Assembly (NCBI GenBank): GCA_036172245.1
Contig: JAYWIR010000043.1
Span: 124,001-188,000, forward strand
Direction of reading: 5' to 3'
Length of the DNA: 64,000 nt
Origin: Raillietiella orientalis
Lineage: Eukaryota
The translations under genes were made by a program, and so were the position numbers. How positions within the stretch are numbered: position 1 is the first letter of the stretch; every line of letters starts with the position of its first letter. This document shows, piece after piece, positions 24,613 through 60,500 of this stretch. Under the pieces are notes generated by a model that saw only the letters and a list, made by a program, of their open reading frames with translations, made no database searches and was not told the origin of the DNA.

Positions 24613-26718
24613 TTGCCACCCGGGAGGCCCGGGGCGTTTATTAATAGAAAACTCTACAATCGCAGTACCAGGCCCCGCTCACGGCCCTATGCACAAGACC
24701 TACCGGGACGCCGGGACGCAGCCCGGCGTGGCCCTCCCCGACAGCGAAAGGAGATGGTGAAAAACAAAAATAAAAATAAAGACGCAAACAAACAAAAGAG
24801 GTTGGAGGGCAGGGAAGGGATCACTGTTCGCTGAGAGGAGGGCCCATCCGTTGAAGAAAGCCTTCGAGGTCCATCCGTATATTCCCCAGTTGGGGCCATC
24901 CAGCAGATCTCCGCAAGAAGCGTTGGGCATATGGGATAACATCCCTCGCGTGTTGACCCACTCCTTCCTTCTTGGTGTCGCTCCATGCCGCCACCATGCC
25001 TCGGTTGCAGCACAAGGCTGCAAGGGCTGCGGCTGGCTGCAGGGCGTCCTTCACGAAGAGGGGCCGAAGAACGTCTCTAGGGGAACTGCCCGTAGGGAGA
25101 CCGAGGGTCGTCCCAAAATGTTCCCAAAGGGGACAAAGGGCAGCGCAGTCCACAATAAGGTGATAGAGCGATTCCCGCTCTCCGCACCTGACACACAAAG
25201 GATCCACAACTCCTCTTGTCCAGTGGGAGCGGCGTGCGTTGCAGCGTAAACCCCAATGCAAAAACAGCAACTTCGACTCTTTTCACTTAAAGGGCAGGAT
25301 CCTCGATTCCTGAAGAAGCGGAGGCCACTTCAGCACATCCATAGGGATGCCCAGCAGGTCGACCTATCTTCTTAGTCCTCGCGGCTGGACGCACAAGGTC
25401 GTGGCTTCCGCCAGTTGACCAATGGACCAGCCGCTTATTCTTTTCTCCCGTCCCTCGATGCAGCAGGAGACTTGCCTCCTTGGCGTCCGACCGCTGTGAA
25501 GCGCCTTCCTCAGGAAGGGCAGCGCCGTAGCCAGGCGGGTTGTCTCTGCCCACGTGCTTCTAGCTGGATTCTCCAGGAGATTCTTCAGAGTGCAGCGGGC
25601 GCAGGGGCCGCATCGGAGACGATTCCACGTTACGTAGCTTCTCCGGTTCACCACATCCCACGTTCCAATGTTCTCCACCATCCAGGCGGAGGACTTGGCG
25701 GGGCAGCAAACCATCCAGCTGTTCTCCATGGCCAACGATGCCATGCGCCCCAGCTGTAGGCCGCATCTTCTGATCTTCCGGCCGGGGATCAAAAGAAAAG
25801 ACGCGAGTCCCTCCACCGGGACAAAGGACTGGCGAGTAGGCGAGTCGGAATGCACCACGGGGTGCTCCACATCTTCGTTGCGATGGCGAGGGTACGCCAT
25901 CGCAGCTGTTTCTCCACGCGCTCCAGCGTCAGGAGGCTAAGTCCACGGTCCCGACGATTAGCAAAAAGGTCCTTCAAAGGGACTCGGGGACTCCTCTTGC
26001 CCTAAAGCGGGATGCGGAGGAGGTCCTTCGTCCTCTTTTTAACAACTCCCAGGGCGGGGCAAACAAAAAGCAAGGGGCGGACGATGGGGGCGGCAAAGGC
26101 GTTCCAAACCGCATCCCGTTCCGGCAAGGGAAACTTGCATTCCAGGAACGGGCCGATCGCCGTCTCGACTTTTTCGAGGCAGCTGGACCACGCTGCCGCA
26201 GGGGAGAAGTCCCCCAACGGAACACCAAGGTACTTGATGCACCTCGCAGTGAGGATCCCCAGACGGACCCAGTCCTGCTGCCCTGCCCACGCCGCACCAA
26301 CTGGCACCACCGACGACTTCGTCCTGTACACCTGCAGCCAGGTCCCGCGGCTGAGCAGCTCGAAGAAGTCTCCGACGGCCTTCGCCAAGGTAGACATAGG
26401 TAACAAGAGCAAAAGATCGTTGGCATAAACACTGACGGCGGACTTGCCGGGGCACGAGCTCGGCAAGGGGGCCAAAGTCACAATGCACGCTCTCAGCACC
26501 AACTCAAAGTAAGTGCTAAAGAGCAGGGCACTGAGACTATCTCCCTGCCGTATGCCCCGTTGCACCGGCACGCCATACACCTTGTGACCGCTGAAAGAGA
26601 CGGTAATCATCGCATTCTGCAAGCAAGAGCGCAGGTAGGAAATCAAGGAGGGTGGGAAGCCCATGCGAACCAGGAGCTCCAAGAGGAGTTCCTGGTCTAG
26701 ACAGTCAAACGCCTTGCA
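24613..26718 (-). mobile_element. L1-B: 3' part of an L1/Tx1-like element (RT C-half, CCHC, 3' UTR), interrupted at the KAFD motif by L1-C
   Basis: RGIRQGDSLS, YAND (mutated YADD), IKYLGV, CVRCGERESLYHLIVDC; ORF2 stop at 24821; terminal AATAAACGCCCCGGGCCTCCCGGGTG on the minus strand at about 24617-24642. Confidence 0.92.
26705..26718. repeat. Degenerate target-site duplication of L1-C (partner 55615-55628)
   Basis: TCAAACGCCTTGCA vs TCGAACGCCTTGTG; both derive from TCGAACGCCTTGCG by CpG deamination. Confidence 0.75.
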
Positions 26719-26812
26719 TGCTCCAGAGTGGACGCGTTTTGTCGGTGCTCCTCGTGCCAGGAAGTCTCCCCCAGTGCAAGCGTCGTGTGGTTCGGTGGTC
26801 CATCATGCAGCG

Positions 26813-28096: not shown

Positions 28097-28109
28097 GCGG
28101 CCAGTAGGA

Positions 28110-28121
28110 GGACGTGTTTTT
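28110..28121 (+). promoter_or_regulatory. Conserved 5'-terminal RGACGTGTTTT motif, candidate internal promoter element (also 26730, 36238, 55640 on +; 53248-53259 on -)
   Basis: Found 2-13 nt inside the 5' junction of five elements whose 5' UTRs otherwise differ. Confidence 0.6.
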
Positions 28122-28195
28122 CCTTCACTCCCCAAAGAGTAGTAGGAAAGCGCTTTTTCTTCTGTGTGGTGTTTTGTGTACATCGTCGGTGTCCA

Positions 28196-29946: not shown

Positions 29947-30363
29947 CACCTGGGCTCGCCAGTCGCCGTCGGATTCGCGCGGCCTGGTGGAATGTCAACG
30001 GGCTGCGCGACGACGGTAACAGGCGAGATACAGCCGACACCCTGCGGGAGTTCGACCTGGCCCTGTTGCAGGAGATCCACGTGATCACCGCGGCAGACGT
30101 CCAGGAGATCGAGACGATCGCGGGGGGTCGGCTGTTTGTCACCCGGGTGCGCCGGGGCGTTTATTATAAACTATCCGGGAACAGGGTTCCCGGACAAAGG
30201 GGAAAACAAGAGACGAAGGGGGTGGGATCCCCGACACGCAGGTCGGTATGCCGAAAGTCCGGAACGGGAGGGAAGGGACCACAAACACACTACTATATAA
30301 AAAAATAAAAGAAAAATATGGAGGGCAGGGGACAGGGGTCTTTGGTAAATGCGTTCCTTCCTT

Positions 30364-33300
30364 TCAAAACCGGCGATGGATGCCGGCGATCTCTCTCCTT
30401 ACGCCCTGTGGCAGATGGGCCCACTGGGCAGCCGACGACATGTTTTCGCTAAATAATTCGGTGGGCTGACGAAGGATGGCCAGCTTCTCCAACTCTCGGT
30501 GGGCCTTGTCGATGGCGCGGGTGCAACACACGGTTGCAACGACAGCACCCAATGACAGGCCGCCTGGCGTGAAGAAGCGGCGCATCAACTCCCTCGCGGT
30601 GTCCCCCTGGTGCAGGAGAGCTGAGGCCAGCCTCCGCCAGAGTCCTAGAAGGGCACCGCGGTCCAGGAGCAGGTGCGGGAGCGTTTCCACTTCCCCGCAC
30701 CGCTTACAGTTTGGGGAGACGACTCCCCCGGAAACAAGGTTCGTGCGCTGGTTGGAGTGAAAACCCCAATGCACCAGCATAATCACATCCTGCTTCCACG
30801 AAAGGGGGAACACAGAAGTGTTCAGACAAGAGGGAGGAACCACAAGTTCTTCAAGGGGCACACTCAAGTGTTCGCTCCACCGAAGGAGTCCCTTCGGAAC
30901 GTGGCGGGGCGTGGCGGCGTCCGCCAGCTCGCAAGTCTTCCAGCCGCCAATAGGTCGCGTTGTTCCTGCGATGGTGCAGGCGACCTCCCATCTCGCCGGT
31001 TCGCAACTGTCATCTCTTGCCCTGAGGGCTGACAGTGCGTCTTCGAGGGGGTGACGGCCAGGCGGGTCCACTTCTCCTGGCTGTTGCACACCTCATCCAC
31101 CGTGCAGTACGGGGAGAGGTGAGCGCAACGGAGTTCCAGGAGGGAAACATCCTGGTGCTTTGCCCAGCCATGCAACGGTTCCTGCCGCCAGGCTTGAAAG
31201 TTCGTTGGGCGGCAGGAGATCCATCCCTGGGCTTCCAGGAGCCGATACAGCGGTTTCAAGGGAAAACCGAAGCTTCTCGTGGCGCGCTCCGTGTGCGGCC
31301 GCAGCGACAGAAGTCCATCGCTGCCTGTGCAGCGCCGCAGAAGCAGGCGCGCGGGAGCGCACCACGGAGTGGACCAAAGGTTGGCGCACAGGGCCAACAT
31401 CCGAAGCTGCACCTGCAGCTCGATTCTCTCCAGCGTCAGGATGCCTAAGCCAGCATCCCGACGCGGAGCCGCCAAGTCTTTGAGGCGGATCCTGGACCTC
31501 GCAGGTCCCCACAGAGCGTTCCTCAACAGGCTGTGCGCCTGGAGCTTGGCCGAGTAGGGGGGCAGAAAAACAAAAAGCAGGGGGCGCAAGAGAGGGGCAA
31601 CGAAGGTGTTCCATATCGTGGCCCGCTCCGGCAGGACGAACCTGCCATGGTGGAACGGGCTCAGGGCATTCGAAGCCTTCCGAAGGCAGTCCGACCACAC
31701 TTCCATTGGGCTGATGTTCCCCAGCGGAACTACCAGATATTGCACGGAGGAAGCGGTCGGGATCCCCAGGCGGATCCAGTCGGACTGCCCCTCCCACGCC
31801 GCACCAATAGGTACGACCACGCTCTTGCTCCGGTTTACGCTCATGCCCGCTCCTCGGCGAATCAGCTCGAAGAAATCCTCGAGACTGGATGCCGGGGTGG
31901 TCATGGGTAAGAGGAGGAGCAGGTCGTCAGCATAGGCCGCCACGGACGGCGTTCCTGGACAAGAGCTCGGCAGGTTGGCCAGCGTCAGCCTGTACGCCCT
32001 CAGCACCAACTCAAAGAAGATGCTGAAGAGCAGCGGGCTTAAGCTGTCGCCCTGCCTGATGCCCCGCCGCACCGGCACGCCGTACACGTGGCAGCCGCTA
32101 AAAGAGATGGAAATGAGCGCGTGGCGCCAGCAAGCGCGCAACTACGCCACGAGGTGCACCGGGAGACCGAGGCGTTCCAGGAGCTCCAGCAGGAGATCCT
32201 GATTTACGCAATCGAACGCCTTGCGGAGATCGACCGCGACCGCCAAGGCACCCGGCGCTTCCCCAGGCCGAATGCAGCGACGCCTAGCCTCGGCAGCCGC
32301 AGACGCAGTTGCCTGGCTGTCGTGCGCCACGCAGCGTTGCAGCTCGAGCCACGTGCGCGCGAAGAACAGGTTCGCCTCCATGGACCGCCCGGGAACAGCG
32401 TAAGACTGCTCCGGACTTACCACGGATCCAGCGATCCTGCCCAGGCGCGCGACCCACAGCCTGGAGAACAACTTGACGTCCGCATTCACCAAGGTGATGG
32501 GACGCCAGTTGCTTAAATGGCGCATGTCTCCGCCTTTCGGCAACAGACGCACCCTTGCTGAGCGAAACGAGGCCGGGAGATTGCCCGTCTCTCGCATCAG
32601 CGCAGAAAGCCTCAGCACCAGGGGGATGAGTTCCGCCGCGAAGCACTGGAAGAACTCCGCAGGCAGACCATCCTCACCTGGCGCCTTGCGCTTCTTGAGG
32701 CCCGCTATGGCGCAAGACACCTCTTCCGCCGTGTAGGGCAAGTCAAGAGTGGCGCGTTCCTCCTCGTCGACCGCCGGGGAATCCGCCGGCAGAAGCAGCT
32801 CCGAGAGACTGCGTTCCGTCGGCTCCCTCGCGTACAACAAGGAGTAATAGCGCTTTAGGAGGCGGCGAACTTCGGCCGCGCCCGAGCACTCCAGGCCCTG
32901 GTCGTCGAGCAGACAAGCTGCTCCTGACTGCCAGACCTGGCGCTCGGCCTTGGCCTTGTACTCCGCAAGGTACCGGACGTCCGGGCATCGGAAGAATTGG
33001 CGGGCCTGCAGAAACTCTCTGCTGTTGGCCACGCCTTTCCCGAAGCCACGGGGAAGCAGGCGCAAGGGGAACCGGCTGCAGAACTCGCGGACCGATCTTT
33101 TCAGATCGTCCCAGTCCACGAGCTCTCGAACGGCAAAGGTCCGGAGATGCTGGCGGAGGTGCTCCGCAGCCACCGGATTTCTCAACCAGTCGGCCGGCAA
33201 CCTCCAGACGTGCGTCGGAGGGCCCTTGCCAGGCGGGAGTAGCTCAAACTCCAGCCTGTAGTGGTCGGAAAGCTCGGACGGCACGGGACCTCTCCGACCC

Positions 33301-33926
33301 ACCCGACAATGCAGGTGATCGTCGAGGAACACATGGTCCGGCAAAGCACGCATTCCGGGATCGTCGGCCAGCAAATTCGAGGCGTGCACCGACGCGCACA
33401 CCTCGTTCACCAGCCGTTTCTCCCGGCGACGGTGAGACTCCTCCGATAGCGCGTGGACGTTGAAGTCCCCGGCTACGAGGTGAGCCACGTCGGGGCCGGA
33501 GTTGCTGAGCCAGCGGTCGCGCAGTCTCTCGAAAAACTCCAGTTTCTCGGTGTGACGCGCGGAGCCGCTCGGCGCGTACACGTTCGTGACGACAAGGTTG
33601 ATCGATTCGGACCACTTGAGAACAAGTTGGCCCACACGACCTTCCTCGTCGAAACAAACGCTCCGCACTGCTCCCGCCACCCTGCCCCGGACAAGGAATG
33701 CGACTGCGCAGGTATTCTGGGAGCCTGACCTCCAATGGAGCGTCCCGCCTGCGCGAACTTGCAGATCGGCCGCTTGCTGCTCGGAGAGTGCGTCAATCTC
33801 CTGCAGCAGGGCCAGATCGAAGTCGCGCAAGACGTTGGCAACCAATCGCCTCTTCTCGTTGTCCTGCAGCCCGTTGACGTTCCAACAGGCCACTCGGACG
33901 CGACGGGAAGAAGCGAGACCGCGCAT
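30364..33926 (-). pseudogene. L1-E ORF2 (APE endonuclease, RT, CCHC)
   Basis: WNVNGL, LLQE, GDFN, SDH, KAPGEDG, DLRKAFD, YADD, CKRCGEVETLPHLLLD; stop at 32142 and frameshift near 31060. Confidence 0.95.
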
Positions 33927-33931
33927 TGCTG

Positions 33932-35866
33932 CTACGGACATGGAAGTGCGTTCCTCGCCCCGTCCGGCGAGGCATCAGCCGGGAGCACGGCGGATGAGGT
34001 AGCGCAAGCGCTTCCTGTCCCCGCCGCGCCGCTCGCGGCCGGCTCGGTCGAGTCGAGGACCATTGCCTCGGGCTCCGAAGAGCATCGAGAACCGTTCCCG
34101 GCATCAGGCTCTTGCCTGGCAAGTTTTGGCTTGCGCGCAGCCCTGGCCTTGACCGGGGCTTGGCGAGCCTTAGCGCTGCCCTCGGACTCCACCTCGGAGT
34201 CCGAATTGCGCGCGCGCGGCGGCGGGCGTTTCGCCTGCCTCTTTGTTTGCTGGCAGCCCGGAGCTGGTCCAGCACTCTTAGAGGGCGCCTTCGTCGCCGA
34301 TCCCCCTTTCGGGGTCACGGCTTCGGCAGCTCCCCTCTCGCCGCGGGTGTTTGCGGCGGCGCGCGCGGCGGCAGCAGAGGCTTTTCCTTGCGCCTTTCTG
34401 GGCGCGCGGAGTTGCCTCTTCACCCCGCCTACCTTTTGGATCGGGAAGTGGGAAGGATCGCGCGGTTTGCGCTCCTTCTTTCCCCCGACGAAGGTCCAGC
34501 CATCCTCGCCGCCTTCCTGTTTGTCCCGGTTGGGCGCGAGGGCTTCCAGGGTCCTTCGCATCCTTTCCAAGGCCTCGGATGCGGCGATGGAGGCCAGTGT
34601 CTCCTTCGTCACGTCTGCCTTCTGCACCTCCTTACAGGAAGGTGTGAGCAGAGTGGCGGGATTCTCGTGGGTTGCGCGAGGCTTTTCAGCCTTTGCTGGC
34701 ATTCGGCCCGCCGTGGCCGGCTTGCCTGTCGCGGGCAAAGGGGCGCGCGACCCCTTTTTCGACGCTCCGGTGGTCTTCCCGGGCGTGCCACCGCTATTTC
34801 GCTCCGGAGCGAGAGCGGACGGAAGCGGCGGTGGTTTTGCAGCCTGCCCGATGTTATCGGCGGGCTGGGTCGCTCAAGGCTTTACTGAAGCAGCCTGGAG
34901 GAGCTTCTTGTCCTTTCGCGCAAGTTTTGGTGGAGCATTGCTCCGAGAATCGCCCGCGCAAGCGGACTTTTCACTTCTCCGCTGAGAATGCTCGTTCGCG
35001 CCTGATTTCTTCCCCGACGACGGGGCGGATGGAGTCGGCGCGGACGGCGATGTTGCGGGGAGGTTTCTCGCCCTCCTCTTTCGTTTCAGCTCGGCGCACT
35101 CGTTAATCGAGTGGCCGAGCAGCTTACAGTATCGGCAACTGCGTGTTGGGCACTTCCGCGGACGGTGGCCCTCCTTCCCGCAGTTGCCGCAAGCGGGGGT
35201 TTGCCCGGCAAACCGGAGATAGACGACGACGTCACCGAGGAGGATCTGCGAAGGCATGAGCCTCCGGTCGTCCATGGTGACGCGCGCCGTCGCGAGTCCG
35301 CAAGAGAGGCGCGCGACTTTATCGATCGGGTTCGCGCGCCTCCACATCGCGTGCACTGTGGCGAACGCCTCGAGTGCAACAATGATGTCGCGGTCCGTTA
35401 TTCTCGGCCTAATGCCCGAGAGCTGGACCACGAACGATTGATCCAGGGCCGAGGGGACGACCTCCTTACCCCTGATTTTCAGGGGGGTTCGCAGTAGGCG
35501 CTGGACGAGGGCTGCATCCTTGCAGTGCACCTCCCAATGGCCTACCGCGCTCACTGGCATAATTGCCAGAAGATCGTCCTCTCGGACCCCTACGCGTTCC
35601 AGCTCGCTCCAGAGCTGGTTGCCCGTCCCATCCCGGTACGCGGCACTGACCTTGTAGGCCAGAGGGGGGTTGTAGCCGTTAGCGGCGTACGCCCGCAGTT
35701 CTGCCTCGTCGGGTGAAACTCCGTGAGCCGCCGCTGCCTTAGCAACGGCGGCAAAACTTCTCGCTGGAGGCGAGGGACGATCGGTGGAGGCTTCCGCTCC
35801 TCCCGAAGAAGGTCCTGCGACGCAGGGTGATTCCTCCACCTCCATTTCTGCGGGCACTGGCTTCAT
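33932..35866 (-). pseudogene. L1-E ORF1 (gag-like, 2 CCHC)
   Basis: MKPVPAEMEVEE...RSFAAVAK...CGNCGKEGHRPRKC...CRYCKLLGHSINEC; one in-frame TGA at 34874-34876. Confidence 0.9.
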
Positions 35867-36309
35867 TTCCAAATGAAAAATCCAACCACACCCAAAAGGA
35901 ACAACCGCAAAGAAGCACCAAAGACGGAGCGCCAATGGAGGGGGTCGGCTGTACTGGCAATGCGGCATCCGCAACACCTGCGGGGTCGCGTTCTTCGTGA
36001 AGCCGGCCATCGACGCTGCCGTGAAGGGCGTGCGCTTCGATGACGACGGTCGGGTCGGTCAGCTGACTCTCGGCTGGTCCGACTCGATCGATCTGATCGT
36101 CACGAATGTGTACGCCCCAACCGGTCAAAAGGGATACAGCAACCGTACCAGGCTGCTTGAATCCTTGAAGCGCGACTGGCTGGCGAACACGAGCGTGCGG
36201 AAGGCTCACCTGAAAGCGGGAGATTTCAATCGAGTGCGGACGTGTTTTCCTTCGCTCTCGTATCCGTGCTTTCATCCGCTTCATCTTGGCGTCGTACATT
36301 TTGACGACG

Positions 36310-38232
36310 ATGTCGACCCAACTTGAAGCTACTGAAGTTGGAGGAACAGCATCCGGATCTGCAATCGCGGAACCGACGGCCGCCTCCACTTCGTCTTTCT
36401 CGCCGATGGAGAGGAGTTTTGCTGACGTTGCTGCCACAGCAGCCGTCAAAGGGAAACCACTCGACGAGTCGGAGTTGCGAGCATACGTAGCCCAAGGCTA
36501 TAGACCTGCTCTCCGATATAAGGTGAGTGGCTTTCTTTCTGCGCGCGACGGAAATCAGTTCAACGATGAACTGACCCGTGTTGGCGTGCGGGAGGAGGAC
36601 CTTCTCGCCATTATGCCCGTAAAAGACATGGGCTATTTCAAGGTGCGTTGCAAAGACGCTGCACTGGTGCAACGTTTGCTGCGCACCCCGTTGTCGATCC
36701 GTGGCCAGAAGGTCTTCCCGGCCGCCATGGACGACTCATTTGTGGTGGAGATTTTCGACATCGAGTCGGAAATCTCCGATACTGATATTCGGAACGCGTT
36801 GGCGAAATTCGCCACGGTCCATGCGCTGTGGAGGGTGCGTAGCAACCTCAAGGACTTCCTGTCCATACAAAGCGGAGTCGCTGGAGTCCGGCTTACAATG
36901 CCGGACCGCCGTCTGCTGCCCACCAAACTACAGGTGAAAGACACGGTCGTTCACCTGTGGTTCGTGGGCAAAGTAAAAACGTGCGAGCAATGCGGGAAGG
37001 AGGGGCATTGTTTGGATAAATGCCCCTCTGGAAAATGCCGTTATTGCAAACTATCCGGGCACCAGTTGAAAAATTGCCCGGATCTTTTGCGAAAAAAGGC
37101 AGCCGCGGAGCTCCATTTTAAAAAACAAAACGCGGATAAAAAAAAAAAATCTGCGAAAAACCTGCAGACCCCACGGCAGAAATTCGGTAAAAACGCGAGG
37201 CGGAATGTCGCCCCAAAGCAGCAGGACACCTCGCACGCGAAGCCCTGCGCACCCCCTCTGCCGGCAGGGGAGCCGCAAAAGAAAGGGTGCGGGGAATCCG
37301 GAGCAATGGTAAGTCCCCCTAGGCGCAATAGCTGTCCTTCCCAAGCACGCCCGGCTCTCTCGGAGTTCGAGCAACCGGCGTGGACGCCAATGGACAACGG
37401 CGGTAAGGACACTTCCAGTACCGTCAGATCCATTCCTTCACCTCCTGCAGTGGCTGAGAAGCCCAAATCGGGTAAGAAGTGTTGTGCCGTTTCGACTTCG
37501 AAAGTCGGCAAAAAAAAATCCGCGTCGCGATCCAACACCGCGGAAGCGGAGAAAAATCTCACGCCGTCGCAGTCGGAGAGCAAGCTCTCGACTGGCGCGG
37601 ATGCCATGCCAACGAAGGGATTAAAAGCCCTTCCGAAAGCAGCGTCCATGACGAGCGTGTCGGAGCCATCGAAAGTGCTCCCGTCCAAAGACGCGGATGG
37701 CTTCAAAGATGGCCATGGAGCACAATCTCCATTTACGGCGCCACGCGAAGTAAGGAACCGTAATGAAGTAAAGAAGACTTCAGCAAAGGTCCCTCGTGCA
37801 ACTGCGCGTGAGCACGCTGAAAACGCGCGCGCCGGGAAAGCAGCCGTCACCAAAAGCGATGCTCTGGTGACGGAAAACGAAAACAGGACAGCTGTCAATC
37901 CAGCAGAACCTGTCACTGCTTCGCGGAAGGCCGAAACCCGATCGAACATGCGCCGGTCGGACTCCGAAATGGATGCCGTTCCGATCAGCGAGACGAGGAC
38001 AACTCGTTCAAAAGCGTGTGCGCGCCGATCAAAAGTAGGCAGCCAGGCAACGCTCGCCGCGAAGCAACGCGAAGTCTCCACGAAACCCGACGGGGTTCAG
38101 CCTGGCGTGGAGGCATTACTTGCATGCAGCACGACAGAGGACGGTGGCGACCGTCCCCTCCAGCCAGTCGTGCTGCTCGCCGTCTGCTCGCCGAATAAAG
38201 CGAGCAAAAAGCCGCCACCTTCCCAGCAGTAA
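36310..38232 (+). CDS. L1-F ORF1, intact gag-like protein (~640 aa; RRM-like region, 2 CCHC, long basic/low-complexity tail)
   Basis: Uninterrupted frame 36286-38232, first ATG at 36310; RSFADVAA, CEQCGKEGHCLDKC, CRYCKLSGHQLKNC. Confidence 0.9.
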   Translation: MSTQLEATEVGGTASGSAIAEPTAASTSSFSPMERSFADVAATAAVKGKPLDESELRAYVAQGYRPALRYKVSGFLSARDGNQFNDELTRVGVREEDLLAIMPVKDMGYFKVRCKDAALVQRLLRTPLSIRGQKVFPAAMDDSFVVEIFDIESEISDTDIRNALAKFATVHALWRVRSNLKDFLSIQSGVAGVRLTMPDRRLLPTKLQVKDTVVHLWFVGKVKTCEQCGKEGHCLDKCPSGKCRYCKLSGHQLKNCPDLLRKKAAAELHFKKQNADKKKKSAKNLQTPRQKFGKNARRNVAPKQQDTSHAKPCAPPLPAGEPQKKGCGESGAMVSPPRRNSCPSQARPALSEFEQPAWTPMDNGGKDTSSTVRSIPSPPAVAEKPKSGKKCCAVSTSKVGKKKSASRSNTAEAEKNLTPSQSESKLSTGADAMPTKGLKALPKAASMTSVSEPSKVLPSKDADGFKDGHGAQSPFTAPREVRNRNEVKKTSAKVPRATAREHAENARAGKAAVTKSDALVTENENRTAVNPAEPVTASRKAETRSNMRRSDSEMDAVPISETRTTRSKACARRSKVGSQATLAAKQREVSTKPDGVQPGVEALLACSTTEDGGDRPLQPVVLLAVCSPNKASKKPPPSQQ

Positions 38233-41200: not shown

Positions 41201-41825
41201 AACCAAACTCCTTGGCACCTGGAAGACAAGTGAGTTGGCGGACGCCGCCACTCCTCGTGTTACTGCAAAGGGACTCCTCCGGTGAGCAGAAGAACTTGCT
41301 GTCACCCCCGAAAAACTTGTAGTCCCCCCACAGTGTATAAACAGTTCGCTGCTCCCCCTTGCTTGGAAACAAGCCGTGCTGCTTTTCGTTCACTGGGGTT
41401 TTCAGTGCAACGAGCGTTGGCATCGTGACTCCGGGGGACTTGCGTCTGCGAACTGCGTTCGGTGCGGATCGACGGAGTCGATTCCCCACCTACTTCTGGA
41501 CTGCGGTGTCCTACAAGGACTGTGACGTAGGCTGGCAACAGCACTATTGCATCCCGTGGACACCGCAAGAGACTTGCTGCGACGATTCTTCACGCCGAGC
41601 GGGCTTTCACTAAGCGCAAGGATTGCAACCATCGGTTGCATACGCGCGATAGTTTCCGTCCGCCAGGCGTTGGTAATCAACGGACAGCACCAAGAGGTAA
41701 TCAGCAAAGCATCCTTTTACATGGGAGCATCCGCTAGATGGCCTCATTTGACAGAGGAGATAAAGAGGAATCTCGCCGCAATACACCGCCGGTTTACACA
41801 CCCTCATCAGCGGCCAACCCGGTAA
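38232..41825 (+). pseudogene. L1-F ORF2 (APE endonuclease, reverse transcriptase, CCHC), ~1197 codons with two nonsense mutations
   Basis: Open for 1017 aa (WNVNGL, LQE, GDFN, LDH, SDHH, KAPGEDG, NWRPITL, DLHKAFD, QGDSLSP, YADD at 40227-40238). TGA at Trp positions 41283 and 41523; same frame continues through CVRCGSTESIPHLLLDC to 41825. Confidence 0.96.
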
Positions 41826-42147
41826 TCATTGCCCTACCCTCCATAAACTAAATTTGCATTTTCTTTTTACACCCGCGTCCCCATAGGCTCCGGAACATTT
41901 TAGGTGCTCATCGTATAAATCCCCGTGAGTACGGAGCCTAACCAAAAACCCGTTACCCTTCCCTCCAATTTTTGATTTTTGTTTGTTTCCCCTCATTCCC
42001 CCCACGCTGCGAGCGGTTTGTTTACCAGGCTTGCGTTCCGATAATTTTTCTATGTTCTCTGTCGTTCTCTTGGTTGGGAACATGGTCCCTGACCAGTTTA
42101 TTATTATTAATAAACGCCCCGGCGTGGCAAGGTGATAAATTTCAATC

Positions 42148-45100: not shown

Positions 45101-45274
45101 GTGGCGGCATGGAGCGACGCCAATAACGAAGGAGTGGGTCCACACGCGAGGGATGTCATCCCATACGCCCAACGCTTCATGCGGAGAGCTGCCGGATGGC
45201 CCCAACTGGGGAATATACGGACGGACCTCAAGGGCTTCCTTCAACGGATGGGCCCTCCTCACAGCGTTCAGTGA
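42148..45274 (+). pseudogene. L1-D ORF2, main part (EN C-half, RT, C-terminal CCHC)
   Basis: IDHVFL, SDH, KAPGKDG, NWRPITI, DLHKAFD, RQGDSLSP, YADD, KYLGV, CARCGERESLSHLIVDC; frameshift near 43300, stop at 43988. Confidence 0.93.
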
Positions 45275-45368
45275 TCCCTTCCCTGCCCTCCAACTTCTTT
45301 TTGTCTGTTTATGTTTTTTATTTTTCTTTTTGTTTTATCCCCATCCCCCTTCGCTGCTGAGGAACGCT

Positions 45369-45493
45369 ACGCTGGGCTGCGTCCCGGCGTCCCGGCAAGT
45401 CCAGTGCATATGGCCGTGAGCGGGGCCTTGTACCGCGGATGTAGAGTTGTTTTTTTTTAAAAAATAAACGCCCCGGGCGTACCCGGGTGTAAA
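45369..45493 (+). promoter_or_regulatory. Conserved structured 3' end: CUGCGU stem-loop, AATAAA, terminal hairpin ending GGGTG
   Basis: Equivalent modules at the 3' ends of L1-B, C, E, G and I, and degenerate in F. Confidence 0.75.
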
Positions 45494-47336: not shown

Positions 47337-47541
47337 TTGCCACCCAGTCACGCCGGGGCGTTTATTAAAAATTCTCTTTGATTCGTGGTACGAGGCCCCT
47401 CTGCGGCCAACTCAACTGCACCTCCGGGTCGCCGGTACGCAGACCGGCGCGACTGTCCTCGGCAGCGGAAGGGGGTGGGGAAAAAACCCCAAAGAAAAAT
47501 AGAACATAAAAACAAAAAGATTTGGGAGGGTTGGGGAGGGA

Positions 47542-51129: not shown

Positions 51130-53173
51130 TACTCCTGGGAAAGTGGCAATGGGGCTCCCGCCACCTGGTCGGGCGGGACGGATGGAGGCATGGGGGCACC
51201 GCCCAGCGGTTCTCCCACCTCCATGGGGGCCGATTCCTCGGCGGACCGCAAGGGTTGAAGGGAGCATGCTTCACGCACCTGCTTCCCCTCTTCCATGGGG
51301 GCCGATTCCCCGACTGCGATGGACGGCAAGGGGGAGCGGTTCTCAGCTGTCTGCTCCCCCTCTTCCATGACCATCTTCTCCGCAGGCTCCACCGGTGGAA
51401 GGGGGAGGCAATGCTCTACCTGCTCCCCCTCCTCCATGGGGGTGGCCGGCTGCTCGGTGGCGGAGGGTGGGAGAATTCCTCCCTCCGTTCCCACGCTGCC
51501 AGCTTCCCCCTCGGCTGCCGGTGCGTCCCCCTCGCTCTTCGTCGGGATGCGCCTCTTGGGATTCCTGGACTTCCGTCCAGTCTTCTTCGGAGGCGCCTCC
51601 GTGGAGGAGGACGCACTTCCGGCATCCGGGTCGTGGTCACCTGTCGGAGATGCCCTGGTCGCTGCTGGCCTTCGCAAGGCCTTTCGCGCGCCGTTCTCAC
51701 GGTCGGCGAGTTCGGCCGCGAGCTCTTCCGCCGCCTGCTGGAAGGCGGCCTCGTCGATCGCGGCGAGCGCGTCGCGCGGTTCCCCCTCTGTTTGCACAGA
51801 GGGTTCGCCTTCCGTGATCGCGTTATCGTCGGCGTCGACGCGGGGGAAATCTCCCCCGGTGGCGGTCTCGGGTACCTCCACACGCTCCAAAGCGACCGAA
51901 CATTCGCGGATCAACGCGCGGCGTTGTCTCCTATTTAAAGGAGACGTCGCGGGTTCCGCTGTCGATCCTTCGGTTTTCTTTGGTTTCTTAGCTTTAGGCT
52001 TCGCCTTCTGCCAGCCTTCGCTCTTTTCAGCGTGGTCGGTAGATTCCACGACCGGCGTTTGCTGTACGGGCTCGGGCTCCGCCTATGGGTTCCGCTCACG
52101 GGTGCCTTCGCAGGGTTTTCCGTAGCCTCCGCGCGTTTCCCTTTGGCCTTTTTCAAGGCAGCGGGAGCCAGGGGTTCGCGCTTCGGGCACACTTTGCGGA
52201 GGTGGCCCTTCTCTCCACAGTGGAAACACTGGATGTGAGGGCACCGCTTTTTCAGGTGCCCTGTGGCATCACAGTGTCCACAGTATTTGGGCTTGCCCAC
52301 GTACCAGACGTCGAAGGTCTCGTTGCCGACGTCTAGTTTGTGGGGTAGCCTACTGTTTTCGTGGACGGTTACACGCGCACCAGCCATGCCACTAAACAGT
52401 CTTCCGTAAATCTGGAAGACGTTGGGCTTGGGCCATACCTCGTGAACCGTTCCGTATTTTCCGAGTTCCTCCTGCACGTCGGCTTTCGACATGCGGGGGG
52501 TGACTCCCGTGAGGTGCGTCACCACGAAGCGATCCTCCGTTACCGGGAAAATCTTTCGGCCTTCCAGTGTGATTGGCGCATTCAGGAGGTGTTGAGCAAG
52601 GCTTGCATTTCTGCAAGTCAGCTCCACCCGCTGACCACCACTCAACACGGAAAGACCTTCCAGGTCTTCCTCTTTTACGTTCAACCGCTGCAACTCCCTT
52701 TCGAAGTTGCGAGCGGTGTTCCCGACAAACAGATTGCCTACCTTGTATATCAGGGACGGCTTGTGTCCCTGCTCCAGGTAGGCTTTCTGCTCGGCGAGGG
52801 CTGCAGGAGATGGAGCTGCAGCCACTGAACTCCAGGTCCTCGGCGATGCCGAAGACGCATTCGAGGGTGCAGGTGCCCCTTTTTTGAAGGAGGCGGTTGC
52901 GCCCTTTTCCAGGGTTGCGGTTGTCCCCTTTTTCAAGGAGGCGGTTGCGCCCTTTTCCAGGGTTGCGGTTGACCCCTTTTTCAAGGGGGCTTTTGCCCCC
53001 TTTTTCAAGGGGGCCTTTGCCCTCGCTTCCGAGGCGGCGGTTGCCCCCTTTTTCAGGGGTGCGGCTGCCGTCGCCTCCGTGGGGGCGGTTGCCTCCACCT
53101 CCGTAAATTGGGGAGAGGAACAAGCCTCTCCCCCTCCTATATCCATCGCGGTGTCCTCAGGCATTTCTGCCAT
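51129..53173 (-). pseudogene. L1-G ORF1 (gag-like, 2 CCHC, KKGA and PMEEG repeats)
   Basis: MAEMPEDTAM...CGHCDATGHLKKRC...CFHCGEKGHLRKVC; frameshift near 52090; ends PLSQE*. Confidence 0.9.
52875..53060 (-). repeat. Coding minisatellite (24-bp unit) in L1-G ORF1
   Basis: Encodes APLKKGA / APLKKGS / ATLEKGA / ASLKKGT / ASFKKGA octapeptide repeats; absent from the other ORF1s in the window. Confidence 0.85.
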
Positions 53174-53276
53174 TGGACACCGCAGATGTTTCACACACAA
53201 ACACAAAAGAAACCAAACGCTTTACACCAGGCGCGGAGGAGCGCTACAAAAACACGTCTGCACGCCAAGTTGCTGG

Positions 53277-55395
53277 CTAAGGTTTGGGCAGAGCGTCTGG
53301 GACGGGTTGCCAACATCTTCATCAGCCCGCAACAGACATATGCTGTTCCCGGGCGAAGCATGGAGGCGAACCTGTTCCACGCTTCCACCTGGCTAGAGCT
53401 CCAACATGAAAGGAGCTTGGTGCGCAGCCGGAATTCCGGTGCGTGCGCCGGCAGGGGGTTGGATGGCCGGGTGGGGGAGGGAGCCCTTGCGGTCGCAATC
53501 GACTTCCGAAAAGCATTCGATTGCGTCGACCAGAATCTCCTTCTAGAGCTTTTAAAACGCTTGTGCTTCCCGGCCTCATTAGTCGCCTATCTGCGCTCCT
53601 GCTGGCGGGATGCGCTCATCAATGTTACTTTCAGCGGGCAGACCGTGCACGGCGTGCCGGTGCGGCGTGGGATCCGGCAGGGAGACAGCCTGAGCCCCTT
53701 GCTCTTCAGTACCTACTTTGAGTTGCTACTGAGAGCGTACAGGGGAACTCTGGTGCACCTGCCGCACGAATGTGCCGGTACGCCGGCCGTTTCAGCATAC
53801 GCAGACAACCTTCTGCTGCTGCTCCTTATGTCCACCTCGGCGGCGGCGGTCGAGGAGTTCTTCGACCTGCTGCATCGGGAAACCGGACTTACGGTGAACA
53901 GGGCGAAGTCGTCCGTGATGGCAGTTGGTGCGGCGTGGGCAGGGCAGCAGGACTGGGTCCGTTTGGTGATCCCCACGGTGAGGTACTTCAAGTACCTTGG
54001 TGTGCCGTTGAGGGACTACTCCTTTGCGGAAGCGTGTTCCGGCTGCCTTCGAAAAGTAGAGACGGCTTTCGGCCTGTTCCGAAGCGGCAGGTTTTTCATG
54101 CCTGAACGGGCCGCGGTTTGGAACACGTTCGCGGCTCCTCTCCTCCGCCCCCTGCTTCTTGTTTGCTCCCCCACAGAGAGACTTAAAAAGCGAACAAAGG
54201 ACCTCCTCCGTAGCGCCCTTTGGGGCAACGGGAGGGCCCGAGTCCGCTTAAAGGACTTGTGCGCTCCTCGTCGGGATGGTGGTCTGGGCCTCCTGACGCT
54301 GAGCGGCTGGAGCTTCAGCTCCAGTTCCGATTGTCCGCACTCGTTCCAGAGTTGTGGTGAACCTGTTGGTGCGTCTCTGCACTTCTCCTTCTCCAGCAAG
54401 CCACCGGTAAGACGGCACTGACGTTGTTTCTTGCACTCCGTCGCCGCGTCAACCGATGCGGACTCCAGCTACGGAGGGTGGCTGCGCTGTATCGCAAAAA
54501 CCCAGGATTGCTCACCTGTCGCTCTTTGAACGGTAGTGCCTGGTTGCAGGAAACCGTTCGAACTTGGGGACAGTTCGGCATGCAACGCTCCCAACAGGAA
54601 CGAAGGTTCCTGTTGAAGGGTTAGAGAAGTTGCACGCTCCACGAGATCCTGGAGGATCTAAAGAAGAGACCGTGGGCAGGAAGAACCCTCCTCGCTGCTA
54701 CGCTGCCCTCCCTGATGGAAAATCTGGACAGAGATGTTGCGGCTAAGTTGGTGGTTACAGTAACAATCTCCGGAAAGGAGAAAAAGATAGGAGAGTGGAA
54801 GACGGGCCAGTTAACAGACGCTGCGACCCCGTGTACGCCTCCTAATGGACTTCTGCGCTGGGGCACGCTGCTCGATGTTCCCACTGAACATCTGAAGTGG
54901 CCCCCGGTGCTCATGAACACTTCCGCCCTCCCCTCAAAATAACAGGAATCGGCTCTCCTGTTGCAGCACTAAGGACTCCCCTGCAACGCCCGCCGACACC
55001 ACTGGACCTGGGGAGCGGTGGACCACAATTGCGTCAAGTGTGGGAAACGGGATTCCCGCCCCCACCTGCTAGTGGATTGTGTTGCCCTTCGGCCCCTTTG
55101 GTTTCGCTTTGCAGCGGCCATCGGAATCCCCTGCAGCAACCTTAGGGACGCACGGAAAGCCCTCTTCGTTGCCGACGCCCTTCGGCTAGCGGCCTCGTTA
55201 GCAGCTCTGTGCTGCCTCCGCGGGATCGTCGTCGCCTGGAGCAAGGCTACGGGAGGACCACACGACCAAGGTGCCATGCAGCCAGCCTCTTAGTTCCTGA
55301 GAAGGGCGATCCGATGGCCCCACCTAAATCCAGGAATACAGATGGAGCTTGCCGGCATCCTGCAAAGGATGCAACGGCCCCACCAGCAACTGTGA
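53277..55395 (+). pseudogene. L1-C ORF2, 3' part (RT, CCHC)
   Basis: DFRKAFD, RQGDSLSP, YADN (mutated), KYLGV, CVKCGKRDSRPHLLVDC; multiple lesions. Confidence 0.9.
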
Positions 55396-55628
55396 TACCT
55401 TCCCGTACCCTCCCAGTTTTTTCTTTTCTTTCTGTTTTCTTTCTTTGTTTTTCTGCTTTCCCCCTGCTGCCGTGGTGGACCGTACCGGTCTTCGAACCAG
55501 TGACCCGGCAGGCTCTGTGTTTCTTCGTGCGTGGCTGGAACAATGGTCCAGCCACTGCACGTCTTTGTAAATGTTTATTTTAGAATAAACGCTTCGGTGA
55601 AATCCGGGTGAAAATCGAACGCCTTGTG

Positions 55629-57541
55629 TGCTCTAGGGCGGACGTGTTTTCTCGGTGCTCCTCGTGCCAGGAAGTCTCCCCGTCGTGTGGTTCTGTGGTC
55701 GATCAGGCAGCAATGCATGACCCGACCACCAGGGATGGAAAGGGGGTAGCGGCAACTCCGTCCTCAGTGGCGATGGAAGGCGAGGGGGCGGCGACAACTT
55801 CGCCCCCAGAGGCGATGTAGATGGAAGCATCGTCCCCCAAAAAATCGGTCCCCGTTACAGCGCGGGCGTGGAGCGCCGTTGTGTCGGGGCCATTGTCTGC
55901 AGCCGCGGCGGAATTGTCTGCGTATGTGTAGAAGGGGTATAACTTCTCACTGTTTTACAAGGTAGGCAATGTTTATTCTTTACAGAGTGCGCGCGCCTTC
56001 TCGAAGGGGATGCGAGCTCTTCATGTGAAAGAGGAAAAGCTCAGCGCTATGATCATCCTCAGCGGGGGTCAGTACGCTGAGGTCATCTGCAAACAAGCAG
56101 AGCTGGCCTAACGACTGCTTAAAACCCCCGTGGTGATGGGGACGCGCAGGCTTCTTCCTATTGCGGCGGACCGCAGCATGGTGGTCCACCTGTTAGGTGT
56201 TTTTGCGCGGATACGCAAGGAACAGGTTCGTGCAGCGTTGGAGGAATACGTTACGGTCCACGCGCAGTGGACGAAAGTTAGTCCTTTCGAGGACTACACA
56301 GGGCTGGAACACATCCTCACGGCTCTGCGCGTGACCGCTCGGGAGGACTGCACCCTTCCCCACAATCTGGTGGTCGAAGGCGAAACCGTTGATATCTGGT
56401 ATGTGAAGAAGCCGAAATACTGCGGCTTGTGCAATACGGCGGGATACATCAAAAAGAGGTGTCCCAATGTGAAGTGCCAAGTATGCGGAACCATGGGACA
56501 CACGAGGGAGGTGTGCCGTGAAGCAGCAGTGCGGGTGGTTTCCAAGAGAAACCTTAAAAAACGCTCCCGGCTGCTGCAGAAGAGGCTGGCGGCGAAATAT
56601 GCCGCGATAGCTGTGCCAACCGCGCCCAGGACCCAGGCCGCAGCCGAGTCACAGGCGACCTACGCCGGCAAAGTTGAGGGAACCGGTCAGAGACTGGGTA
56701 GCAAGTGGCAACGGCCAGAAAATCAAAGAAGGAAAGGAGGATGAAAAAAAAAATCACCTATGAACGAAGGAAGAAAGAGCAGGGTAGCGCGATAATTAAA
56801 GAATGCAGCGTCGTTGTCGAACGCGTTCCTGATGTTGGCGAACGCTGCCAGAAAGAACTCGCCGCTGCCGACGACCATCCGTCTATTGACTCTGTCAACA
56901 TCGAGGACAGGGAGCCGGCGGCGGCGTCCGTCATCGACATCACCATCGAAGACGAAGCCTTCGAGCGAGCGGCGGAGGAGCTGGCTGACTTCTTGCAGCC
57001 GCCCGCCTCCAAGGCTGGCAAGAAGGCCTTAAGGCGTCCGGCTTCCTCTTAGGAGTCTTCCACTTCCGACTACGAGGTGGATGCCGGAAGCGCTCCTCAG
57101 TTTTCACGGCATTCTGCAAGAAGGCTGGACGTAAGTCCACAAAGCCGAGGAAGATCGTCTCCACCGTCGAAGCGGAAGAGATGGCTTCCGGAAGCGTGGG
57201 TGCCATGTGAGTGAGAAACTCGCTGGACCCGTCGCCCAAGAGACTCCCACGCGCGTACACGGAGAGGATGGAGGAGGTGGAGGCCGATCAGGTAACTCAG
57301 GTGCCTGAGAAGGCCGAAATCCCCTTGGACATCCCGCCTGCCTCGCATGATGCGGGCTCCCCCTCACCTTTATCTTCCCAGCAGTAATGCCGGAAATCTC
57401 CTACCGCTTTCGTCTGCGCTTCGCCGTTTGGAACGTGAACTGCATGACAGACGACGGAGGAGACGAGACATGGCCGCCCTTCTAGAATCTTTCGCTGCTG
57501 CAGGAGATCCACGTGATCTCTGCAGAACAAACGCAAGAGAT
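55629..57541 (+). mobile_element. L1-H: second, more decayed copy of the L1-C family (5' end, ORF1, start of ORF2), interrupted by L1-I
   Basis: 5' TGCTCTAGGGCGGACGTGTTTT matches the L1-C start; ORF1 colinear with L1-C (CGLCNTAGYIKKRC, CQVCGTMGHTREVC); TAATG at 57385-57389. Confidence 0.9.
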
Positions 57542-60500
57542 TTCTCACCCGGTCACACCGGAGCGTTTATTTCATAGAATATGAACAAAAACAATCATAT
57601 AAAATAAACCAGCTGCCATGCTGTCAACCGACGACTGAACAAGGATCAAGAAAAAATTGCTGGCACGTAGGCCAGAATAACACAGAACGGTGTGCGAAAA
57701 CTGGGAACACAAGCAAACAAAAACAAAAGAAAAAGAAATCAATGGGGGACGGCGGGACAAGTGTCTTTGGGATCGCTCGGGTTCACAATGGGATAAAAGT
57801 AATGGAACCGGCAGTTTAGCAGAGCGAGCGGGAAAGGGGTATGGATTGGCTTCAACACGTAGTGATCACCGGATTAAGCCGTTCTTAAAAGTCTGTAAGC
57901 CGGCGATGGATGCTGGCGATGTTCTCTTTGACCTCGTCACGAAGATAAGGCCACCTATCTACCTTTTCTATGGATTCTGCTGCAAACCGTTGAGCCTCAC
58001 TTCGCTGCGCTGACAACACCAGGGCGTAGCAAGCCTTCACGATGGCGCGAAAGCAACACACGGTTGCGACAATGGCGCCTACCGAAAATCTATTCCTCCT
58101 GAAGAAGCGCCGCAGCACATCAATAGCAGTGCCACCCTGCGGCAGGATTGCTGAAATCAGCCTTCGCCAAAGTTCACGGAGGTTACCGCAGTCCAGCAAG
58201 AGGTGCGGAAAAGACTCTATCTCTCCGCACCTCAAACTGTTTGGCAGAGCAGCTCCCCCGGGAACGATGCTTCGCAGCCGATTATAGTGGAAGCCCCAGT
58301 GAAAAAGAGCAGCACATCTTGTATCTACTTTAACGGGAACACGAAGCTGTCCAATCAAACGGGAGGAACCACTATCTCTTCCGGGGTTACACTTAAGTGT
58401 TCACTCCACCGAAGCAGGCCTTTCGCCCGATTAAGAGGAGTGGCAGTTTCCACCAGCTCCTTTGTCGTCCAGCCGCCGAGGAGCTTACTGACTTCCGCTA
58501 TTGTGCAGGAGAACTGAAACCTCTTTGGTAGGCAACTGTCGTCGCTTGCCCTGAGGGCAGACAGCGCTTCGACGAGTGGTGTGGTGGCCAGACGATCCGT
58601 CTTCTTCTTCTCCTGCTTGACTTGATCCATTGGATGACTGATGAAAAGTCGCAGGCGCCGGATATCTTCCGAGTGCGTTTCTTCCGAAGCTGCCCACGAT
58701 GAAAAAGATCCCTGCCGACATGCATTAATGTTCATGAGGCGGCAGGAGATCCAACATTGGGCTTCTAGCAGTGAGGACAGCTGCCTCAGCAAGAAGCCAA
58801 ACCTTATTCTGGTGTGCCGAAACTGGGGCAGCAACGAAAGCAGTCCCTCGTTTCCCGTACAGCGCGTCAGTATAAGTCGTGCAGGTAAGCACCACGGCGT
58901 ACACCACAGCTTAGCACAGGGTCGCAGAATTCAAAACCGCACCTGCAGCTCTATGCTTTTTAAGTATAGGATGCCCAAGCCTGCATCCTGACGCGGCGCC
59001 ACCTAGTCTTTAAGTCTTACGCGGGTTCTTGCAGCGCCTGACAACGTTTTGCGTAGAAGGCGCTGCGTCCAGACATTGACTTCCTGGGAGGGTGGACAAA
59101 CAAAAAACAGGGGGCGCAGGAGAGGGGCAAAAAAGGTGTTCCAGATGCTGGCTCGTTCCGGCAAAACGAACTCGCCTCCTGAGAAAGGTCCAAGTGCACA
59201 CTCTGCCTTCCGAAGGCAGTCCGACCACGCTTGAGATGCAAGAGTCGCCCAACGGCACGCCAGTGTACCTTAGGTACATACCCGTGGGCATCCCCAGGCG
59301 GATCCAGTCGGACTGCCCGTCCCACGTGGCTCCAACCGGAACAACAATGCACTTGCTCCTGTTGACGCTCAAGCCCGCACCGCGACGGATCAACTCAAAG
59401 AAATCTTCAAGCGACACCGCCGGGTTGGACATGGGCAACAAGGGAAGCAGGTCGTCGGCATAGGCTGCCACAGCCGGCGTACCTGGACAGGAGCTCGGCA
59501 GGTTGGCTAGCGTCAGCCTGTAAACCTTCAGCACCATTTCGAAATAGATGCTAAAGAGCAGCGGGCTTAAGCTATCACCCTGCCTAATTCCTCGCCTAAC
59601 CGGCAGGCCGTACACGCGACAGCTACTGAAAACAATGGATGTAATCGCGTCTCGCCGGCAGGAGCGCAAGTACGCCATCGGGGATGCCAGGAGCCCCAGA
59701 CGTTCCAAGAGCTCAAGAAGAAGCTTTTGGTTCACGCAATCGAAAGCTTTGTACAAATCGACTGCAACCGCCACAGCTCCCGGGGTTTCCCTTTTCGACC
59801 CGCGCATTTGTCGGTGAGAGATCAAAGGCGTCGCTTCCGCACGACGATCCACCGCTACACGATGCTGCAATTGCAGCCATGTGCGGATGAACAAGAGATT
59901 CGTGTCTATGGACCGCCCAGGAACAGCGCACGTCTGCTCCGGACTTACCAAGGATACGGCGATCCTCCCCATCCGCGCCACTCAAAGTTTAGAGAACAAC
60001 TTGACGTCCGAATTCACTAATGCGATCGGACGCCAATTGTTAAGTAGGCGCAAATCTCCGCCTTTCGGCAGGAGACGCACCTTCGCTGATTGGAACGAGG
60101 CGGGGACATCCCCCGCGTCTTGCATCAGCGACGAGACCTGGAGCACTAGGTGGGTGAGCTCCGCCGCACAACACTGGAAGAATTCTGCGGGGAGTCCATC
60201 CTTGCCTGGCGCTTTCCGTTTCTTGAGTCCCGAGATGGTCGAAGAAATTTGCTCTCCCGTGAAGGTCTCATCGAGACGCACCGCGTTCCTCCTCGTCTAC
60301 GACTGGTGCATCAATCATCAGAAGCAGCTCGGAAGGACTGCGTTCCGTTGATGTCTCTGCATACAAAGAAGAGTAATAGCGCCTAACTATCCGCCGCACA
60401 TCGTCTGGAGCCGAGCATTCCCGGTCCTGGTCGTCGAGCAGAACTGTCACTTCTGACTGCCAGACCTGGCGCTAAGCCTTGGACTTGTACTCGGATAATT

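Follow-up and report, generated by a model that had tools for sequence, protein, structure and literature searches.

We analyzed a 64,000-nt stretch of Raillietiella orientalis DNA (assembly GCA_036172245.1, contig JAYWIR010000043.1, positions 124,001 to 188,000, forward strand), referred to here as the window. It carries a family of retrotransposons that lack long terminal repeats (non-LTR elements), or long interspersed nuclear elements (LINEs), and this report concerns their 3′ untranslated regions (UTRs), in particular a stem-loop shared by the copies, H1. From ~23.8 to 64 kb the window consists of APE endonuclease and reverse transcriptase (RT) elements nested within one another. In Pfam comparisons, the long frames clearly matched Exo_endo_phos (the APE endonuclease) and RVT_1, and the frames of the first open reading frame (ORF1) matched zf-CCHC. 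Fragments were mapped by tblastn, using ORF1 and ORF2 of the best-preserved copy as queries. ORF2 of the other copies is ~50% to 69% identical to that of the best-preserved copy, and thus several subfamilies are present. The nearest database relative of ORF2 is a single JGI protein (56% identical); all others are 28% or less identical and often carry zf-RVT.

Seven copies have 3′ ends inside the window: B (−), E (−), F (+), D (+), G (−), C (+), and I (−). The comparisons below draw on these seven copies, which fall into ~5 lineages, in this single window. A tail word, AATAAACGC, is present in all seven (7 matches in the whole window versus 0.23 expected). Copy D is broken by two full-length insertions, E and F, whose extents follow from the tblastn map and target-site duplications. 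The main protein-coding landmarks are as follows.

30136-35939, − strand: full-length copy E, 5804 bp, within ORF2 of copy D
36232-42138, + strand: full-length copy F, 5907 bp, within ORF2 of copy D
44729-45271, copy D: C-terminal ~180 aa of ORF2, with a Cys/His motif and a near-threshold zf-RVT match; homologues in all seven copies

E is flanked by the 13-bp duplication GGGGGTCGGCTGT (30123-30135 and 35940-35952) and F by the 9-bp duplication ATTTCAATC (36223-36231 and 42139-42147). F has suffered little damage: ORF1 is open over 672 codons from stop to stop, and ORF2 is interrupted by a single in-frame TGA (41283-41285), at a position where E, I, and D have tryptophan and beyond which the C-terminal domain continues in frame.

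The frame of D extends 181 aa past the ORF2 end first assigned to F, and this stretch is conserved in all seven copies (32-80% identity), with a zf-RVT match below the Pfam cut-off (E 4.5e-4; 21.3 bits versus 27.5). Because this C-terminal stretch is real, the 3′ UTRs are only ~205-315 nt long, shorter than the frames first suggest; the true stop codons put AAUAAA 175-283 nt downstream of the stop. ORF1 of every copy encodes two CCHC knuckles. RNase H was not matched in the protein pieces scanned, and comparison with a protein atlas revealed nothing beyond a generic APE and RT LINE.

A first-pass annotation of this DNA had placed the elements in an L1/Tx1 lineage. The APE and RT domains, the sub-threshold zf-RVT, and the CCHC knuckles of ORF1 would all fit such a placement. 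B, G, and I, like E and F, are located in ORF2 of other copies, at differing positions and in both orientations. The five insertion points lie at about aa 66, 72, 166, 314, and 498 of ORF2, their target-site duplications or flanks are unrelated to each other, and Tx1-like insertion into one specific target was not seen among these five sites in the window.

The H1 hairpin and its covariation

The six H1 hairpins listed in the first-pass annotation (B, D, G, E, I, and C) were all found at the coordinates given there, and a degenerate homologue occurs in F. Coordinates refer to the window; pairing is described for the sense strand of each element.

24708-24729, − strand: H1 of B, 8-bp stem, loop CUGCGU (pair probability 0.8 in the whole-UTR fold)
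45369-45390, + strand: H1 of D, 8 bp including one U.G, loop CUGCGU
47430-47449, − strand: H1 of G, 7 bp, loop CUGCGU, closing pair U-A instead of G-C
55483-55502, + strand: H1 of C, 7 positions with one C.A mismatch and one U.G, loop CUUCGA
30231-30246, − strand: H1 of E, 5 bp, loop CUGCGU, the two loop-proximal pairs changed on both sides (11.3 bits with the leave-out model R1, below)
57660-57675, − strand: H1 of I, 5 bp, loop CUACGU (R1, 11.4 bits; pair probability 0.92)
42023-42043, + strand: degenerate H1 homologue of F, 5 of 7 aligned pairs, a bulged A, loop (C)UUGCGU(U) (placed by MAFFT; missed by R1 at E<=10)

The loop is nearly fixed, with the consensus C-U-N-C-G-U, and in each of the seven copies 103-127 nt separate it from the 3′ end, although the intervening sequence is nearly unalignable. 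Comparisons between subfamilies give identities of 79% for the loop, 54% and 51% for the two arms, 31% for the 90 columns that follow H1, and 74% for the terminal 31 columns. The U.G pair of D is probably a private, copy-specific C-to-T change, as three of three contigs covering position 45373 in a public DNA sequencing run, X1, read C (Logan contigs, share 0.24; 656 contigs aligned at 80% or more). Among the X1 differences listed, this position is the only one that falls in the hairpins.

To compare the copies, the seven 3′ UTRs were aligned by MAFFT, which takes no account of structure (272 columns). All of the listed H1 hairpins, and the degenerate homologue of F, fall in one block of this alignment. 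RNAalifold, applied to the seven whole UTRs, predicts just two shared helices, which are H1 (7 pairs) and a 5-bp terminal hairpin. In H1, 44 of 49 cells (89.8%) hold standard pairs, and five of the seven pairs have changed on both sides, a number reached in 6 of 500 shuffles. The loop-closing pair varies between G-C, U-A, and C-G. The covariation score is 0.565, versus 0.288 ± 0.071 in the shuffles, none of which (0/500) reached it. When the 3′ partners are slid by 1-3 columns, pairing falls to 22-45% and the score to 0.03-0.27. Coming from seven sequences in ~5 lineages, this covariation is suggestive and not a formal proof. It bears out the earlier statement that the stems differ yet keep pairing: the hairpin has a conserved loop and a compensated stem across subfamilies whose ORF2 is ~50-67% identical. 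The accompanying statement that the surrounding UTRs often cannot be aligned holds in part. MAFFT aligns conserved blocks through all seven copies, but blastn joins distant subfamilies only via the last 30-40 nt.

Inverted repeats may also arise by chance, and the hairpins could be neutral palindromes in GC-rich, CCGG-rich sequence that were picked after the fact. Five-base stems are common at 58% G+C, C requires a mismatch, F barely pairs, and the loops of I and C are admitted with one and two changes. Two controls that use no alignment bear on this reading. CTGCGT occurs 47 times in the window, counting both strands: the four UTR occurrences are flanked by 5-8 pairs, and none of the remaining 43 by more than three. 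Among 327 sites matching CT.CG[TA], five or more flanking pairs occur only at B, D, G, E, and I, and thus at 0 of 322 loop-like hexamers outside the UTRs. In 20,000 mononucleotide shuffles, a stem of at least the observed length beside such a loop appeared 9 times for B, 5 for D, 7 for G, 86 for E, and 112 for I. The count for C is 669 of 20,000, with only its 3 contiguous pairs counted, and no such stem stands at the loop motif of F in this control. Together with the placement of the hairpins in a single block of an alignment blind to structure, and the drop in pairing from 90% to 22-45% when partners are slid, these counts largely refute chance as the origin of the hairpins, which we regard as extremely improbable.

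Structure also helps to locate copies of H1 that were left out of the model. A covariance model, R1, was built from B, D, G, and C only and run on both strands of the window (128 kb) with filters off. The hairpins of I and E, which had been held out, rank 7th and 8th in this search at their exact bases, with 11.4 and 11.3 bits, respectively. A sequence-only model of the same alignment gives I 5.0 bits and E 4.3 bits, at ranks 11 and 15, and structure therefore contributes 6-7 bits. The hairpin of F was not recovered by R1.

For B, D, G, and C, RNAalifold adds a lower stem in which a CGCUGC box upstream of H1 pairs with a CCCGGCAG box downstream of it. The extended structure has 16 pairs and an internal loop, and its lower part shows little covariation. 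According to this prediction, H1 in these four copies is the apical part of a longer interrupted stem.

The terminal tail and the absence of poly(A)

A conserved tail, absent from the first-pass annotation, forms the end of every copy. It consists of AAUAAACGC, a CCCGG-N4-6-CCGGG hairpin with a G.U pair, and then GGUGNNAA-3′.

24613-24642, − strand: conserved 3′ tail of B (AAUAAACGC, terminal hairpin, GGUGGCAA-3′)
30136-30165, − strand: conserved 3′ tail of E, its end set by the GGGGGTCGGCTGT duplication
42109-42138, + strand: 3′ tail of F, with a weak terminal hairpin, its end set by the ATTTCAATC duplication
45463-45493, + strand: conserved 3′ tail of D
47337-47366, − strand: conserved 3′ tail of G; X1 contigs depart at 47332, so that the insertion may extend by up to 4 bases
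55584-55614, + strand: conserved 3′ tail of C
57541-57571, − strand: conserved 3′ tail of I

Poly(A) is lacking at the ends of the seven copies; E and F terminate in at most 2-3 A. For E and F this is certain, as the ends are set by target-site duplications, and for G it is supported by the X1 contigs, which leave the window sequence at 47332. Over the last 30 nt the subfamilies are 74% identical to each other, versus 31-53% elsewhere in the UTR (the loop of H1 aside), and within the UTR blastn matches between distant subfamilies are confined to the tail (82-92% over 26-40 nt). The predicted energy of the terminal hairpin is −6.7 to −13.9 kcal/mol, except in F (−4.2). Of the cells of the terminal helix, 91.4% are paired, including five U.G/G.U cells that pair in the sense strand only, versus one C.A. 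No pair of this helix has changed on both sides in the seven-copy alignment. The position that a stringently recognized stem-loop takes, within the last few tens of bases and beside the initiation site, is occupied by the terminal hairpin and not by H1. AAUAAA lies 24-25 nt before the element end, which is the usual gap between this signal and the cleavage site.

By primary sequence, no part of the UTR is conserved better than the tail, which is located where reverse transcription must start; it is at least as good a candidate as H1 for recognition by the RT, that is, by the protein of ORF2 (ORF2p). This raises the possibility that the tail alone is the site of recognition and initiation, and that H1 serves binding by the ORF1 protein (ORF1p) in packaging or cis-preference, or alternatively RNA stability, export, or 3′-end processing beside the AAUAAA signal. 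We consider such a division of labor possible, if on the unlikely side. It would accord with the primary-sequence conservation of the tail, its position at the very end where priming occurs, the usual cleavage distance from AAUAAA, and the location of H1 well upstream of the end. The two CCHC knuckles in each ORF1 also fit, as retroviral CCHC knuckles bind G-containing hairpin loops, and from the protein sequence ORF1p is an equally open candidate for the binding partner of H1. Nothing, however, separates binding by ORF1p from binding by ORF2p, and the terminal hairpin lacks the two-sided changes seen in H1. The tail hairpin of F is degraded as well as its H1, so F discriminates neither element.

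Proposed recognition of the 3′ end

The explanation that we favor, with a probability of roughly 55% for the whole, is that H1 is a selectively maintained RNA stem-loop, and that H1 and the tail together mark the element's own transcript by 3′ recognition of the stringent type. Directly observed are the hairpin and its covariation, a roughly constant spacing between it and the 3′ end, the conserved tail, and the lack of poly(A). We link H1 and the tail in a joint cis signal because poly(A) is absent, the terminus is invariant, and a fixed loop is combined with a drifting stem, as in ZfL2. The RNA strand would fold, leaving the stem free to drift while pairing holds and the six-base loop nearly fixed. 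A protein would read the loop, and ORF2p may be that protein. H1 and the end of the element (AAUAAACGC, terminal hairpin, GGUGNNAA-3′) would then mark the transcript for the element's own proteins, and target-primed reverse transcription would start exactly at the last unique bases and not on a poly(A) tail. The first-pass annotation had proposed a structured RNA element for template recognition by ORF2p. Structure-dependent recognition of the stringent type is a reasonable proposal; the specific link between H1 and ORF2p is plausible but unproven.

Several observations weigh against this explanation. The sample is small (seven copies in ~5 lineages), and on one of five measures, the number of further pair types, H1 does not stand out (8 versus 7.5 in shuffled alignments; 261 of 500 reach it). 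Taken singly, the matches of R1 to the held-out hairpins of I and E are insignificant (E-values 2.1 and 2.3). In whole-UTR folds the probability of H1 is high in B (0.8) and I (0.92), lower in D (0.26), and at most 0.04 in the other four copies (G, C, E, and F), in which pairing is contested by further segments with CCGG, the tail included; overall, a different fold is predicted to predominate in four or five of the seven UTRs. In F, H1 is degenerate and the terminal hairpin weak (−4.2 kcal/mol), although this copy is the least damaged. H1 also lies farther from the 3′ end than the stem-loops of UnaL2 and ZfL2. Finally, wobble pairs leave its strand unsettled, with three U.G cells versus two C.A cells.

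This last point touches on a further alternative, in which the inverted repeat acts as DNA or minus-strand cDNA, for instance by fold-back in second-strand synthesis or as a protein-binding palindrome. The near match in H1 between antisense-only cells (two C.A) and sense-only wobbles (three U.G) would be compatible with such a role. The conserved loop, however, is not palindromic, the neighboring terminal hairpin has five sense-only wobbles versus one C.A, and we know of no LINE mechanism that requires such a DNA palindrome 100 nt inside the element. We therefore regard action as DNA or cDNA as very unlikely.

A two-part mode of recognition can also be envisaged. H1, ~105-125 nt from the end, would be read by one protein, perhaps through the CCHC knuckles of ORF1p, and the AAUAAACGC-hairpin-GGUGNNAA terminus would position ORF2p; the transcript would use a canonical poly(A) signal, with reverse transcription starting at the cleavage site and poly(A) left uncopied. 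We put this forward as a speculative and doubtful scheme. If true, an L1-like family with hardly any close relatives in the databases would use a mode intermediate between stringent and relaxed.

Stringent recognition of the kind proposed for H1 and the tail has precedents among L1 elements of plants and algae. In a monocot L1 lineage (the LINE1-1_ZM group), divergence over the last 45 nt is 0.144 versus 0.570 elsewhere, and the 3′ hairpin shows compensatory stem changes with fixed loop and flank bases (Ohshima 2012, PMC3472496). The Chlamydomonas element L1-1_CR shares its tail with SINEX-3_CR, and stringent recognition has been proposed as ancestral in plant L1s (PMC3472496). The elements described here resemble these stringent L1s in having APE and RT domains, a 3′ end that is the most conserved part, and a compensated hairpin with a few fixed bases in the loop or flank. 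They differ in architecture: the hairpin of the plant and algal L1s lies in the last 45-50 nt and most of those elements end in poly(A), whereas here the covarying hairpin lies 103-127 nt in, a second hairpin is terminal, and poly(A) is absent. The motifs, compared by description, differ too (loop UCU and flank CGAG versus CUGCGU). In light of these precedents, the view of L1-type elements as reliant on poly(A) is outdated, and the first-pass description of H1 as a candidate for an undescribed system is overstated, as stem-loops with compensatory changes are already on record for stringent elements of the L1 clade (PMC3472496).

The logic of recognition would be that of UnaL2, ZfL2-1, and ZfL2-2, namely, loop-specific, with a stem that need only pair and no dependence on poly(A). 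According to PMC4176376, the loop gives specificity in ZfL2-1 and ZfL2-2, and experiments assign recognition to the linker between the endonuclease and RT domains of ORF2p, the conserved part of which reads the stem and the variable part the loop. UnaL2 and ZfL2 differ from the present elements in belonging to the L2 clade and in having short terminal repeats immediately after the stem-loop, at the very end; both ORF2p binding and the dependence of retrotransposition were demonstrated there by experiment. A position-specific stem-loop in the 3′ UTR has been proposed for human L1 and Alu; in PMC5135761 it has a 5-7 nt loop and a bulged stem, similar in shape to the extended H1 of B, D, G, and C. 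Human L1, by contrast, ends in poly(A), and the role of its stem-loop is described there as a hypothesis from structure prediction.

Nesting of E and F inside D, and of B, G, and I inside other copies, also recalls a known system. Zepp and ZeppL are green-algal L1-type LINEs that pile up by self-insertion. Zepp ends in (A)n (Table 1 of PMC3472496), whereas the copies in the window lack poly(A).

Further copies and a curated counterpart of the UTRs were looked for in several collections. Rfam gave no match at the gathering score in the whole window, and for the UTRs of D and E only chance-level matches were obtained (16.2 bits or less, versus cut-offs of 45-58.6). A metagenome scan with a 14-base tail word matched at least 120 loci; CCGGGTG follows downstream at none of the 120 listed, and these are therefore chance bacterial matches. 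A gapped tail pattern gave one chance bacterial match in genome contigs and none in viral contigs, and a scan of viral contigs with the ORF2 protein found no match. A literature search with the motif strings, which covered papers and not Repbase or Dfam, found none of relevance, and as far as this search reaches the particular motif is undescribed.

Overall, H1 is a real, conserved, covarying RNA hairpin and most likely a stringent-type LINE 3′ signal of an already known type rather than a system of a new sort. Current views of LINE biology are unaffected. What the window adds to the LINEs that seem to recognize their own 3′ RNA is an L1-like family, known so far from this one locus, in which the clean split between fixed loop, free stem, and invariant terminus offers a convenient natural test case for template choice. 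The hairpin and tail could also serve as a search handle for non-autonomous partners in the host genome; in the window, all seven AATAAACGC tails lie in LINE bodies.

Other features of the UTRs and the window

A second hairpin, H2, which the first-pass annotation reported in E, C, and F, is present in all three.

30174-30194, − strand: H2 of E, 9-12 bp
55531-55555, + strand: H2 of C
42071-42095, + strand: H2 of F, seen by eye and not the minimum-energy fold of the segment

The three share GGAAC...G(U)UCC, with outer stems that differ, and H2 is strong in E and C. It is not shared by B, D, G, and I, and is thus not family-wide.

Other UTR features were noted. All seven UTRs start with a C-rich CCCTNCCCTCCA-like box, followed by a T-rich tract of 40-60 nt, a second C-rich box, and H1; these boxes occupy the first ~95 nt (e.g., 45275-45350 in D), and F has the first box twice. 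Judged by eye, B, D, G, and C each have a 3′ H1 arm that, together with the next CCCGG, resembles the copy's own terminal CCCGG-N-CCGGG tail, including the spacer (24690-24716 in B, 45382-45408 in D, 47411-47437 in G, and 55495-55521 in C, which has UGA in both places). The segment may have arisen by duplication of the tail within the element, or may serve as an alternative partner in pairing.

Three ideas about the UTR were rejected. A 4-bp pairing between loop and tail (GCGU with ACGC) is contradicted by the loop variants of I and C, which are uncompensated in their tails. Long-range pairing between an H1 arm and the tail, seen in minimum-energy folds of G and E, does not track the stem changes of E and I. 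A tie between the weak H1 of F and loss of an ORF1 knuckle is ruled out, as F has two knuckles.

With regard to the nesting, the 3′ ends of C and D adjoin 5′ regions of further copies, and the arrangement could reflect a preference for targets of the element's own kind or simply a graveyard region. Three X1 contigs track the host copy of G to 47332 and then continue into uninterrupted ORF2-like sequence; X1 thus contains, elsewhere, a copy of this kind that lacks the G insertion.

Two tandem repeats complete the inventory. The first, at 944-22565, borders an assembly gap of 99 N (845-943) and consists of ~3.8 head-to-tail copies of a 5.72-kb unit with 98.8-99% identity. Its eleven scanned frames have no Pfam match, and ribosomal DNA was excluded by the lack of Rfam matches. 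The second, at 52865-53069, has a 48-nt (or 72-nt) unit in 2.5-4.2 copies with 73-80% matches. It lies around the start of an ORF1 frame (51935-53221, − strand), assigned to copy G without a junction check, and reaches into the overlapping ORF2 frame of copy C (52973-54421, + strand).

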